Shown one piece after another: positions 16,945 through 33,927 of a stretch of 64,000 bases of DNA. Where the stretch lies: positions 2,755 through 66,754 of the IMG/VR virus record IMGVR_UViG_2513237143_000002. One strand, given 5' to 3'. The position numbers were made by a program, and so were the translations under genes. Source of the stretch: a virus. Taxonomy: Duplodnaviria; Caudoviricetes. Every line of letters starts with the position of its first letter. Positions within the stretch are counted from its first letter, which is position 1. The notes under the pieces are model-generated. The model was not told the origin of the DNA. It searched no databases and saw only the letters and a program-made list of their open reading frames with translations.

Positions 16945-17220
16945 TCGGCACGCCGCCTGCGCCATCTGGACAGATTTAGACGCATACCCTCGGGAAGTGT
17001 TTCCCGAGCCATATGTCACCTTACTGTTTGAGAGGAAGTGTCTGCCCCATGGGCAAAGAAAGCCCCGCTCAGTGGAGGGGCTGGTGGTCTGCAGTCTGCG
17101 CGTGAGCTCTTTCTTTTCATCCAAGCTAGGGTGCTTGGCATCTTCTCAGCCGATCAATCGAGTTCCGACAAGTCGGCGAATCATGGCAAAAGCTAAGAAT
17201 TTCGAATGCGCGGGGCGAGC

Positions 17221-18109
17221 GATGACCAAGTTGAGTCGGAGCGAAACAATAGCTATTTTCGGGCTTGGGTTGGCCCTAGTGTCGATTGTGCTTGTAGCTT
17301 GGGCTCCGCCTCCAGCTCGCTTGGAAGACAACGTTTCCGCATTCTGGGAAGACACCGCGCCCCAATGGCTTATGGCAATATTCTCCGTCCTCAGCACACT
17401 GATCAGTGCACTGGCGGTCCTGATGGTATCAGACACTCTCAGGGAAACTCGAAAAACAACCGGCTTCGCAGAGCAAAGCGCCGGTGCTGCTATTCAAGCA
17501 TCAAAGGAAGCGCAGGAAAGCAACAGAATTGCAGATCGTGCTTCCGTCTTGGAAAATAGACCGTGGGTCGAGATCCGCGATTTCAGTATCGACAATGTCA
17601 ATATTCTCAACGATCTTCACCCGCACATCATGTCCCGAAATGGGCTAGCTATAAGCGGCAGGTATGTTTTAAGAAATCTCGGAAAGACGCCGGCGATCAA
17701 CGTCCATTCAATGCAGGTTTACGCTTTACGCGAGGATATACATTCGATGGGAGGCCGAATTGAGCGCGGACTCGAACGGCTCGACAGGAAAGAGCCAATG
17801 CATTCACTCGGCATTCTTGGGCCAGGAAGCGAGGATGCAGTGCGTTTTAGCTGGGTTGTCCCGGTCAATGAGCCACCAAGAATGGGAGCCGGATATCTAA
17901 AGCATGATTTACAAATCGCGATAGCTCCACTCGTTTCGTATGGGTCTAATCTTCAGGATGGAGCATTTCATACAGCTCAGGCATTTGCGCTTCATCTTGA
18001 TGCGGGACCCGGCATGCATCGTTTTGCTCCGGATTTTGAGGATATCAAAGCCAACGGCATGCCTAAGAATTTAGTCGCTGTCCGATTGCCCACTTCGCTG
18101 ATGGGTTGA
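17221..18109 (+). CDS. Moron, membrane-anchored hypothetical protein (two TM segments)
   Basis: Hydrophobic helices IAIFGLGLALVSIVLVAW and WLMAIFSVLSTLISALAVLMV; AT-richer; start uncertain (ORF open from 16997). Confidence 0.6.
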
Positions 18110-18130
18110 AACTAGGCGAACAATAGATTG

Positions 18131-18238
18131 GAAGCCCGTTTTTCGGGCTCCCTCTCAAAGCGGCGTAGCCTTTCCAAGCGTTGCCCGACCACAACAAGCC
18201 TCTCCTAGCCCTGCCTGCCATGAAGCCCCGTTCGGGGC
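18131..18238 (-). ncRNA. Putative guide-like RNA: hairpin, 11 GGY-NN pentamers, terminator hairpin
   Basis: Minus strand 18215 to 18161 reads GGCAG GGCTA GGAGA GGCTT GTTGT GGTCG GGCAA CGCTT GGAAA GGCTA CGCCG. Hairpins at 18225-18238 and 18133-18149. Confidence 0.75.
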
Positions 18239-18277
18239 GCGAGGTTGTATGGAACTCTCGCCGTAACCCTGCACCCG

Positions 18278-18784
18278 TTATTTCTTGCCAATCTTCGGGA
18301 GTTCGCGTCCGATCTCATCTATCACGCCAATGAGTCCACTAAACTCCTTCAAATCGGCGTACCGCTTTCGCCACGCCTGAAGTTCAGCCCATGCACGCTT
18401 TAAGACTAGATCGCGAGTTGCCGCTCGTGAAAGGGCGTGCGTCGTCTCGCGGTAGTGAGGCGCTCCGGCCTCCGCGACGTGCACATAGGCTTTCTGCCGA
18501 ACAGCCGGCTTATCGTCCGAAACATAGATCGCCACGACTGCTCGGATCAGCCCACGCGCCTGCTGTAGTCGATATTGCCGAGCCGCTTCAGTGTCGCTCC
18601 ACTCGAAGAAGGAATGAAGTGGGCTGTTGTTGTTCTTTGCGTCGTCGAGCACGTCCTCGGGCGTTAGTTCACCCTTGAACTTCTTGCGGAGCATCTCGAT
18701 GTGCTCGCCTACTAGTTTTGGATCCTTATTGGCTCCAGGCTGGAAACGGGCACCTTCTGCGAACTCGAAGCCAGCGATCTTCAT
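18278..18784 (-). CDS. Conserved-looking phage protein, partner of the Cas7-like gene
   Basis: ATGA overlap with the Cas7-like gene; motif LTPEDVLDDAK..SPLHSFFEWSD.EAARQYRLQQARGLI. Confidence 0.85.
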   Translation of the reverse strand: MKIAGFEFAEGARFQPGANKDPKLVGEHIEMLRKKFKGELTPEDVLDDAKNNNSPLHSFFEWSDTEAARQYRLQQARGLIRAVVAIYVSDDKPAVRQKAYVHVAEAGAPHYRETTHALSRAATRDLVLKRAWAELQAWRKRYADLKEFSGLIGVIDEIGRELPKIGKK

Positions 18785-19446
18785 TGGGCGGCCTCCAGCT
18801 TGAACATGTCAGCTTCGGTGGCGACATGGAACATGCCGGACATGCCGTCTTTCTCAGGTCTCCACTCACCAACACCGACCGCGAAACCAGCAACGTTGAT
18901 GATGTTCAGGATTTGGCTCTCACTTAGAACGTTGGCATTGTAGCGGACGAGCAGCTTGGCGTGCCAGTCGGCGAATTCGCCGCGGTATCTGAGATCGGCC
19001 GTTCCCATCCCAACGCGCACCATGTCTTCGCGCATCGACGGTTCAGCGCCAGCAATCCTAACGAGGTTGTGCCGTGCCCTGGTGCCGTCGAAGGCACCTT
19101 TAGCATCGACATCCTCTCCCAGAATATGAAACGCCTGTCGTGCTGCGACCTTTGTTATGCCCGCTACCGAGGTGCAGGCCGTTACAGCAGCGGCTTTGAA
19201 TCCTATCGAAGGAAACCCATAGCCGCCGTCGCCGAGCCGGTAAAGCGAGCTTTCGAAGTCCGCTTTCGGGTCCTTAGCCTCTTTTGCCTGCTTCGCGGCT
19301 TTCATCTGCTTGCCCAGCATTTCCTTCTTGGCCTTCTCCGACCAAGCGTGGACGATGAGCGGGCTGTCACCGACCACCGTCACCTCCATCAGCCGGATAT
19401 CCAATCTCGGCAGTTCGATTCCGACTTCTTCTCTTTTGGCTGCCAT
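18781..19446 (-). CDS. Cas7/RAMP-like protein (Vipr-like), stand-alone
   Basis: RAMP-like first strand VTVVGDSPLIVH, FPSIGFKAA helix and C-terminal Gly-rich loop AGFAVGVGEWRPEKDGMSGMF. Confidence 0.75.
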   Translation of the reverse strand: MAAKREEVGIELPRLDIRLMEVTVVGDSPLIVHAWSEKAKKEMLGKQMKAAKQAKEAKDPKADFESSLYRLGDGGYGFPSIGFKAAAVTACTSVAGITKVAARQAFHILGEDVDAKGAFDGTRARHNLVRIAGAEPSMREDMVRVGMGTADLRYRGEFADWHAKLLVRYNANVLSESQILNIINVAGFAVGVGEWRPEKDGMSGMFHVATEADMFKLEAAQ

Positions 19447-19457
19447 TTCCCCGCCCC

Positions 19458-20252
19458 TCAAAGCGCTTCTTGCAGCGCTGGCTTAATGAGCAGCGCCAAC
19501 TTAGTGAGCCCCTTTGCGGTGACGCGAACTTGTTCCGTGACCTTTTCAGAGCCATCAGCGCGGAGCACCGTCGTCACCTTGTGTTCTAGAAACCCGGATT
19601 GCGTCTTGGACGAATAACCAAGATCGTGAGATGCCCCTACCCGCTTGTAAATCCAGCCGTTCCGTCGGAGCCAATCGAAAAGGTCGCTCGGGCGCATCTG
19701 GAGCGCCTTTGCGGCGTCGGTGATGCAAAGGCTTCCATCCGCTGCGGAAATGCGCTGCAAGGCCTCCTGCGAGGGCAGAAGTTCCTGCACCTGCTTTTCT
19801 AACTGGAGCGCCTTCTCGCTGTATGTGAGAAGAAGCCCGCGAAGTGCGCCTGGGTCGTTTAGATCGATGGTCGGTCCGCTGTTGGCAATGCGGCGAAGCT
19901 CGGCTTCCATCGCGTTGAAGGCTTCGATATAGCGGAGTTTCCATTTCAGAGCCTTGCCGCCAGTGAAGCCCATGGCGAGAAGCGTAAAGCCGTCTCGGTC
20001 CATGTTGAAGGATCTGGATTGGATAGAGGCTCCGCCGCTCGGGTTGGGACGCTCACTGACCGTCTGCGCAAAATTGCGCACACGCATTTCCGGCGCTTGT
20101 TGCAGCAGGTTGTCGATCGCGCGGAGCACGTCACGATGCTCCTTGCCGAAGAACTCCGCAACGTCGCGACTGTTCGCGAAGACCTCTCCATTTTTCGTGA
20201 AGACGACGGGATTGCGCTCGGCATGCATCGGTGTCATCTGTGCATTCGTCAT
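19458..20252 (-). CDS. Rha family regulator fused to an ANT/KilAC antirepressor domain
   Basis: SRDVAEFFGKEHRDVLRAI and DGFTLLAMGFTG.KALKWKLRYI.AFN (Rha); GSLCITDAAKAL and VTAKGL (ANT). Confidence 0.9.
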   Translation of the reverse strand: MTNAQMTPMHAERNPVVFTKNGEVFANSRDVAEFFGKEHRDVLRAIDNLLQQAPEMRVRNFAQTVSERPNPSGGASIQSRSFNMDRDGFTLLAMGFTGGKALKWKLRYIEAFNAMEAELRRIANSGPTIDLNDPGALRGLLLTYSEKALQLEKQVQELLPSQEALQRISAADGSLCITDAAKALQMRPSDLFDWLRRNGWIYKRVGASHDLGYSSKTQSGFLEHKVTTVLRADGSEKVTEQVRVTAKGLTKLALLIKPALQEAL

Positions 20253-28206: not shown

Positions 28207-28806
28207 TTAGAAATTCGGCCAGACTGGCTGAACGCCCCTGGCGAGCCGGCTCGTGCCGTCGCAAAACTTGTCAGTTTCCGAGACCGCCTTTTGATGAGGA
28301 GACGACCAGACCGACCGTGCGCCGCGAGACCGCGTCGCCTCGCCTGTCACAACGGCAAGAGAAAGCGTGATGCTCGGGCTATCGCCCTCCTCAACTGGCG
28401 GGCTCACCTCCCCGGTATGAGAAGCGGTCCCGGTCCAGATCGGAATGATGTTGCTCATCGGCTGGAAATACCGATCGAGCGTCGTCAGTCCCATCTGGAC
28501 GGCCGCACCACGCACCGGCGGCAGGCTGTCAAGCATCTTCGCCGAGGTCGTAGGATCGAGACCAGAAAGGGTGAACTCGACACTGTCCGCGGTACCGTTG
28601 ACCAATATCTCGAGTGTTGGCACGCCGATGAGACGGCCGCCACCGAGATAGACCGTCCCGGTCGGGTCGATGCTATCGAAATTGGCCGGAATGTCGTTGA
28701 TCCCGAACCAGAGATGCAAGGCAGGATCCGTGTCGACCCTGAGGAAGATGCCGAGCTGATGGCTGCCGCGCATCTCCTCGATGATGTGTGCGGGGACGAA
28801 CTCCAT
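28207..28806 (-). CDS. Minor tail protein
   Basis: Position and composition within the tail-tip module. Confidence 0.75.
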   Translation of the reverse strand: MEFVPAHIIEEMRGSHQLGIFLRVDTDPALHLWFGINDIPANFDSIDPTGTVYLGGGRLIGVPTLEILVNGTADSVEFTLSGLDPTTSAKMLDSLPPVRGAAVQMGLTTLDRYFQPMSNIIPIWTGTASHTGEVSPPVEEGDSPSITLSLAVVTGEATRSRGARSVWSSPHQKAVSETDKFCDGTSRLARGVQPVWPNF

Positions 28807-33190: not shown

Positions 33191-33927
33191 TACGCACCAC
33201 CGACAGGAGCGACCGTCAGAACGGCGCTGTTGATTTCGACATTGCCCTGCAGCAGGCGAGCCGTGTTGGCGCCCCCGCCGTTCTCCTGGGCGGTCATGAC
33301 GATCCCGTAGAAATACTTCGTCGTTCCCGTCGGCGCGGTCGTGGCGGTATGAGTGCCCGACTGCGTGCCGCTGGTGTCAATCGCCGCACCGCCGGGCGTC
33401 GCCGCCACCTGAAAGTCGTTCGCGGTCGGGTTCAAGACGTAATAGGTGGTGCCGGCCGTGAGGCCAGTCGGCAGCGCCCCCGTCGTCGAGAACTTAATCG
33501 GGGTGCCGGCGGCGAGGCCATGAGCATTCCAAGAGATCACGCCGGGCGATGCGATCGTCATCGTGACCGTCGACGTTTTCGCCGGCGGCGCGTCGTTGAA
33601 CAACAGCTTGAACGGATAGTTGTAGGGCGTTGCCTCGGCTTCGATAAGCGCGATCTGTCCAATGTCATCCGGAAGGATGATGAAGTTGTTCTGCATCGAA
33701 CCGGCGTTTCGTGTGCCCTTCGCCTTCAGATCGCGGCCGGACGAAATGACGGATTCGGTGATAAGCGCCGCGGCGTCGCCGATCGCGCCCATCGTCTGCC
33801 AGCCTTTCACTTCGGTGAAGCTGACAGACGAGAAGAGCGCCTCGTTGATGTCCGCGTCATCCGGAACGTTATTCACCGCCGGCCCGATATAGATCTTCGC
33901 GCCCGCGACTGGGTACAGCTGAGCCAT
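33190..33927 (-). CDS. Major tail (tube) protein with an inserted beta-rich domain
   Basis: GAKIYIG...KGTRNAGSMQ; position upstream of the chaperones. Confidence 0.85.
   Translation of the reverse strand: MAQLYPVAGAKIYIGPAVNNVPDDADINEALFSSVSFTEVKGWQTMGAIGDAAALITESVISSGRDLKAKGTRNAGSMQNNFIILPDDIGQIALIEAEATPYNYPFKLLFNDAPPAKTSTVTMTIASPGVISWNAHGLAAGTPIKFSTTGALPTGLTAGTTYYVLNPTANDFQVAATPGGAAIDTSGTQSGTHTATTAPTGTTKYFYGIVMTAQENGGGANTARLLQGNVEINSAVLTVAPVGGA

Follow-up and report, generated by a model that had tools for sequence, protein, structure and literature searches.

The window analysed here is a stretch of 64,000 nucleotides from a contig recorded as a provirus, with tail and tail-fibre genes and a Rha/ANT antirepressor gene near the locus described below. 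Judged from its 90% protein clusters, the host of this prophage is Sinorhizobium meliloti. On the minus strand the antirepressor gene precedes two genes that are coupled through overlapping stop and start codons, vipr and a candidate vap, and these are followed in order by a pseudoknot leader, the bases GGCA, 11 units of the form GGY-NN, and a terminator (Table 1). The units lie in a convergent gap, between two hairpins. The convergent gene on the plus strand, a 370-aa ORF at 16997-18109, contains a hydrophobic stretch, and 20 bases separate its end from the hairpin at 18130-18152, which is common to this ORF and the vrRNA; searches of Pfam, PHROGs and PADLOC found no family match for it.

Table 1. 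Features of the putative VIPR locus and a tail-gene site matched by the guide of a relative; positions are those of the window.
Feature	Position	Strand	Description
vipr	18781-19446	minus	Cas7-like RAMP protein, 221 aa from ATG; ORF from TTG at 19461
vap candidate	18278-18784	minus	accessory gene, 168 aa; start overlaps the vipr stop
Conserved leader, H-type pseudoknot (helices P1 and P2)	18239-18270	minus	from an alignment of 15 leaders
Variable hairpin (18225-18238) and short linker	18220-18238	minus	between pseudoknot and array
GGCA four-base unit	18216-18219	minus	directly 5' of the tract; shifts the register by one base
vrRNA guide tract	18161-18215	minus	11 GGY-NN pentamers, from PWM score and sequence
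Nine-base linker and terminator-like hairpin ending the vrRNA	18130-18160	minus	9-pair hairpin at 18152-18130
Tail-gene site matched by the L001 guide	28682-28713	minus	in ORF 28207-28806 (phrog_2048); 19/20 at gap 1, in frame

From 18215 to 18161 on the minus strand, the tract is composed of 11 in-register pentamers, each a fixed triplet followed by a variable dinucleotide. The dinucleotides are AG TA GA TT GT CG AA TT AA TA CG, with A or T at 15 of the 22 positions, a readout that confirms both the list and the composition given in an earlier note on this DNA. Six of the triplets are exact GGY, and the five of 11 that depart from it are GGA (twice), CGC (twice) and GTT (once); a purine thus stands at position 3 in two units. 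Tandem GGY-NN units with variable NN, at least four of them and beside a vipr gene, are the mark of a VIPR array, and they are present here. VIPR was described first in bioRxiv preprints of 2026, as a system in which a minimal RAMP protein of phages polymerises on GGY-NN RNA and silences DNA (10.64898/2026.04.26.720920; 10.64898/2026.04.26.720927; 10.64898/2026.10.15.759431). Published vrRNAs have 9-16 units, and systems with a single vrRNA exist (10.64898/2026.04.26.720920; 10.64898/2026.04.26.720927). Both VIPR itself and its decoding rule are therefore already published, and the locus is not a new kind of system.

A PWM built from 74 arrays of relatives, with the window itself excluded, gave the tract a score of 26.2 bits. 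The runner-up site elsewhere in the 66.7-kb contig scored 5.2 bits, and 100 shuffles scored 6.7 +/- 3.5 bits and at most 17.8. A looser array caller, which accepts two of the three bases per unit, could not separate the tract from shuffles, which reach 12 units by the same measure, and for this reason the comparative evidence carries the most weight. Tandem Repeats Finder did not detect the tract, since only three of the five bases in each unit are constrained and the repeat is too degenerate for it, and no direct-repeat array was detected. A coding reading of the arrays was excluded by guide lengths of 4 mod 5 and by stop codons in every frame.

Neither Pfam nor PADLOC returned anything for the product of vipr or of vap, and PHROGs assigned them to phrog_4652 and phrog_15946, respectively, both families of unknown function. 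The AlphaFold model of Vipr is of high confidence (pLDDT 94, pTM 0.87), and its best Foldseek matches are RAMPs of the Csm3/Cmr4 type (E 5e-6, probability 1.0); the PDB gave 45 matches at E<=1e-3, and those listed are Cas7-type RAMPs without exception. Searched as a single sequence against the PDB, Vipr found one solved structure, 36pp_D, the 'SUSP1 Vipr protein' (E 1.2e-4), and a profile of 51 homologs aligned with 36pp over nearly its full length (chain residues 4-189 of 202, E 4.5e-13). In SUSP1 Vipr the residues H17, R138, D177, W178, R179 and K33 hold G1, G2, Y3 and the skipped base, and the pocket excludes a purine at position 3 (10.64898/2026.04.26.720927). SUSP1 H17, K33, R138, D177, W178 and R179 align with H38, K54, R160, E199, W200 and R201 of the window's protein. 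R160 and R201 do not vary among the 51 homologs and H38 varies hardly at all, and E199 in place of D177 is a conservative change. By these alignments, the 221-aa protein is a Vipr homolog with conserved contact residues. The model of the Vap candidate has a pLDDT of 76, and fold searches with it gave no convincing match. Both genes are intact and highly conserved. Proteins annotated as hypothetical in 32 records of Mycobacterium and Gordonia phages are Vipr homologs with 39-47% identity, among them gene 19 of Gordonia phage ODay and a gene of Mycobacterium phage Quico.

Relatives of the locus, collected by means of the 168-aa protein, comprise 24 viral and five genomic loci, and in 29/29 of them a vipr homolog lies directly upstream of vap. 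An array is found at the same place and on the same strand in all 23 distinct relatives whose DNA extends past the accessory gene, and nowhere else in each 6.5-kb locus. These arrays are usually hundreds of bases long with 2 to 8 guides each, and they end in intrinsic terminators on the same strand that are clearer than that of the window, whose single guide block is the shortest array of the group. The triplet in the 74 guides of the relatives has G at position 1 in 94%, G or T at position 2 in 93%, and C or T at position 3 in 94%, and NN varies. Guides contain 8 to 12 units. All guides of the clade start with GGCA. This sequence is met again after every 8-12 pentamers and delimits the guides, each boundary reading GGCA and then GGY. 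This produces a terminal GGCAG unit whose last G is common to the next guide. The terminal GGCAG never matches the target, and we therefore regard it as a boundary unit and not as part of the guide.

The pseudoknot leader is supported by covariation. Across 15 leaders, P1 is paired in 92% with compensatory changes at 3/4 pairs, and P2 is paired in 100% with compensatory changes at 3/5 pairs; the covariation score is 0.40, compared with 0.15 in shuffles, and 0/500 shuffles scored as high. The window's own leader keeps the pseudoknot intact. Most relatives have a hairpin at the position of 18225-18238, and its sequence is not conserved. A search of Rfam at E up to 10 matched no family, and neither a hammerhead nor another ribozyme was found in the leader. 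A second type of conserved leader, in which a hairpin leads into a fixed G-rich stretch ending in GGCAGGC, occurs at about 3500-3600 in L008, L009, L011, L018, L020, L023, L024 and L029, and some loci have leaders of both types, each heading its own array.

The earlier note had proposed that each NN pairs with the target and that every third target base is skipped, on either strand. This is the 1-nt skip rule, established experimentally for vrRNAs (10.64898/2026.04.26.720920; 10.64898/2026.04.26.720927), and the gapped pattern given in that note and its reverse complement were consequently the correct queries. The rule also holds in this clade. We scanned the 74 guides of the relatives and the guide of the window against 215 kb of DNA at gaps of 0-3, with shuffled guides as the control. 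At gap 1 there were 18 matches of at least 85% identity, compared with 1.8 for shuffled guides; gap 0 gave no match at this threshold, gap 2 gave five matches (not inspected individually) against 0.8, and gap 3 returned only the arrays themselves. When the terminal unit was dropped, six matches of at least 88% were obtained, compared with 0.05 for shuffled guides. A lack of enrichment over shuffled arrays at any gap size had been named beforehand as the outcome that would count against the decoding. That outcome did not arise: pooled homologous arrays are enriched at gap 1; for the window's own guide, taken across the whole database, no such excess was seen (below). The gap-1 code is thus valid in this clade.

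Several of these matches fall within the window or in VIPR loci. The first guide of L017 (L017:3560-3614) matches the window's pseudoknot leader at 18239-18267 (-) with 20/20 bases at gap 1, and in the two leaders of L017 itself substitutions or an insertion break the register for this guide. From these sequences, the pair looks like one VIPR phage silencing the guide locus of a rival. In other loci, vap genes are matched by guides of L023 (23/24 bases) and L020 (17/18 bases). The closest relative, L001, whose Vap is 96% identical, has a guide that matches a tail gene of the window (Table 1); the same site is present with one mismatch in the proviruses G406-G408, and the contig of L001, which is 73% complete, contains no match within three mismatches. 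The four best coding matches of the clade, including the candidate for the window's guide described below, are all on the sense strand and in frame, so that the skipped base falls on the wobble position. At 33434-33456 (+) the window is matched by a guide of L011, with 15/16 bases at gap 1.

The target of the window's own guide was sought in several collections. In its own contig, including the satellite, the best score at gaps of 0-3 was 15/22, equal to the shuffled expectation. The failure of the earlier spot checks to match the nearby satellite and intergenic DNA is thereby upheld, and the absence of a match in the contig agrees with the VIPR preprints, in which no self-targeting by guides was found (bioRxiv 2026). 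An exact search of IMG/VR with the 11-unit and 10-unit patterns returned no match. In 401 Rhizobiaceae genomes, a set with one genome per species in which S. meliloti accessory DNA is poorly sampled, there was one match with up to three mismatches compared with 11 for a reversed control, and thus no excess. The genomes of three named relatives held no target for the guide, and the intergenic region, compared with the phage collection by blastn, gave chance matches only. A seed of the first eight units, searched exactly in IMG/VR, hit 13 contigs, three of which are homologous proviruses with a GC content of 0.57-0.62. A second eight-unit seed (units 3-10) hit AT-rich contigs only, with no coherent target.

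In the three homologous proviruses the first nine units match in 18/18 bases and the whole guide in 19/22, the last two units contributing one of four bases. The site coincides in frame with the codons of SYDFVRNFN, near residue 250 of a protein some 900 aa long, and its skipped bases are wobble bases. The gene is a tail-fibre gene (phrog_38233) whose close homologs are named S. meliloti. The proviruses share 88-90% nucleotide identity with this prophage in the adjacent tail genes and have a different fibre. They are without a vipr gene, two of them are rated 100% complete, and all three are also matched by the L001 guide. Among them the skipped bases of the site vary and the NN bases are constant. 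Two further alleles encode the first serine as TCC and score 16-17/22; this serine codon is TCC at L059:6154 and L061:5479 and AGC in L057, L058 and L060, at 6154. The synonymous AGC/TCC switch between codon families removes the first guide unit; it may be a means of escape from the guide, or drift alone. The S. meliloti locus-tag prefix GOA89 is found on a relative of the targeted fibre (89% identical over 73% of its length, the matched motif being absent) and also on a fibre of the window's type; one S. meliloti strain may therefore host both phage lineages.

At gap 1 the candidate loci score 19/22 with the guide and 14.6 +/- 0.7 with shuffled guides, of which 0/1000 scored as high, and gaps 0, 2 and 3 are at chance; this is a post hoc comparison, as the loci were chosen because of the match. 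The reversed eight-unit control hit 38 IMG/VR contigs, of which six scored at least 19/22, and the tail-fibre match is therefore not significant database-wide. The case for it rests on the host, the relatedness of the phages and the reading frame, all noticed after the match was found. On this basis we lean towards the tail-fibre gene of VIPR-less sibling S. meliloti proviruses as the probable natural target of the window's guide, on evidence that is suggestive and not proof. The decoded dinucleotides had earlier been taken, for their A+T content, to point to a promoter or operator or to a low-GC invader. This is unsupported, as the candidate is a coding site with C-rich wobble bases. The NN positions are A-rich throughout the clade (position 4 is A in 37% and G in 31%, position 5 is A in 41%), the window's 15/22 is not unusual beside the clade mean of about 59% A+T, and the NN composition resembles that presumed for codon positions 1 and 2.

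Three other accounts of the tract were weighed. It is rather unlikely, though the strongest of the three, that the guide works and its tail-fibre match is coincidental, the true target being an S. meliloti phage, satellite or plasmid outside the searched collections. Such a coincidence is in keeping with the same-composition control, which yields as many IMG/VR matches at 19/22 or better, with units 10 and 11, which are unmatched in the candidate, and with the sparse coverage of S. meliloti accessory DNA when each species is represented by one genome. It would need, however, to have fallen on the same host species and on phages with tail genes that are 88-90% identical, and in addition to lie in the reading frame of the sense strand, as the other three coding matches of the clade do. 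Distinctly less probable is that the tract is a decaying, non-functional remnant, one degenerate guide left of a longer array. The contrast between one guide here and 2 to 8 in relatives would fit such decay, as would the departure of 5/11 units from GGY, two of them with the position-3 purine that the SUSP1 pocket excludes. But both genes, vipr and vap, are undamaged and highly conserved, the pseudoknot of the leader is likewise intact, single-vrRNA systems are reported in the VIPR preprints, and the degenerate units GTT, GTC, GGA and CGC are common in those guides of relatives that have perfect targets.

The tract might also be no guide at all, but a repeat RNA bound by a protein, as in a TRAP-like 11-mer ring, or spacer DNA between convergent terminators. 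To this we give almost no credence: 11 units with a five-base period do resemble TRAP sites, and the tract does stand between two hairpins in a convergent gap, but the adjoining protein is a Vipr homolog and not TRAP-like, the unit counts of relatives range from 8 to 12, and the NN strings of relatives match rival phage DNA perfectly at gap 1, unlike a pure protein-binding site. A TRAP-like ring-binding RNA was also rejected on its own terms, as the triplet is GGY and not (G/U)AG, no TRAP domain occurs among the Pfam-scanned neighbours, and the fold of the adjoining protein is that of a RAMP. A string of two-tetrad G-quadruplexes and a set of DNA iterons for a ribbon-helix-helix protein were considered as well, and both were dropped given the Vipr homology and the gap-1 matches. 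We conclude, with a probability of roughly 90%, that this S. meliloti prophage carries a VIPR system and that the tract is the programmable part of its single vrRNA; the expression of this guide and its tail-fibre target are what we infer beyond the locus itself.

By analogy with the solved SUSP1 system, each protomer of Vipr would bind one pentamer, burying the bases of GGY and presenting those of NN. The NN bases would then pair with double-stranded DNA, one target base being skipped per unit, and the bound Vipr filament would silence transcription. If the window's guide is expressed and loaded in this way, and if its natural target is the SYDFVRNFN codon run in the tail-fibre gene of sibling phages, the prophage would block tail-fibre expression of a close rival that has a different receptor-binding fibre.

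The nearest system of known structure is the type II VIPR of Escherichia phage SUSP1 (PDB 36pp). The two have in common a small RAMP with aligned GGY-contact residues, a gene at the vap position downstream, a GGY-NN vrRNA (of 11 units here), the gap-1 code, carriage by a phage, and guides aimed at rival mobile elements and rival VIPR loci. They differ in that the sequence similarity is only about 25% and is detectable by profile, the repeat consensus here is less strict (G, G/T, C/T), and Vap here is without a recognisable fold match. The pseudoknot of SUSP1 is the 3' tail of its repeats, whereas here it lies 5' of an array in which guides abut without tails, and the locus is therefore not type II. 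As the legend of fig. S18 describes them (10.64898/2026.04.26.720920), the 'staggered' vrRNA arrays of other VIPR types have a one-base overlap, and to the extent of that legend the guides of this clade, which abut with a one-base overlap at GGCAG, are alike; the unmatched terminal GGCAG unit is a feature that we report for the clade.

vrRNAs directed against rival VIPR loci and codon-phased targeting of satellites have been reported (10.64898/2026.10.15.759431). The L017 guide on the window's pseudoknot, the two guides on vap genes and the in-frame skipping of wobble bases are of the same kind. Our host and phage lineage are different from those in that report, the candidate targets are genes for the tail and tail fibre of sibling temperate phages and not a satellite recombinase, and the satellite adjoining this prophage is unmatched, in contrast to the satellite targeting described there. 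Like Cas7 of class 1 CRISPR-Cas systems (Csm3/Cmr4), the window's protein has an RRM core, a glycine-rich loop and a thumb, with one protomer per repeat and periodic flipping of bases. Unlike class 1 systems, the locus lacks a CRISPR array, further cas genes and an adaptation module, and its guide has a period of 5 nt, in which three bases of the guide are buried and one of the target is skipped, whereas that of class 1 is 6 nt with one base flipped. A class 1 CRISPR-Cas system was rejected, as there is no direct-repeat array and the neighbouring genes gave no cas or defence-system matches.

Two proposals follow for the clade, and taken jointly we hold them tentatively, at a little short of an even chance: that its VIPR is an allele-specific weapon among sibling temperate phages, and that its RNA architecture is a distinct, uncharacterised solution to assembly and processing. 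If the first is true, guides would be used against the receptor-binding fibre allele and the tail genes of relatives that lack VIPR, and VIPR-bearing relatives would be hit in the pseudoknot leader and in vap. The second concerns the 5' H-type pseudoknot leader, the separation of guides by a GGCA register shift and the unread terminal unit, and the leader and the unread GGCAG unit would be useful rules for calling guides in staggered arrays. The gapped mechanism was recoverable from the sequence alone, without database searches. With this locus S. meliloti, a nitrogen-fixing symbiont, would join the hosts whose prophages fight by means of VIPR, and the fibre-allele candidate, together with the reciprocal matches on the window's leader and tail gene, offers testable pairs for competition among rhizobial phages.
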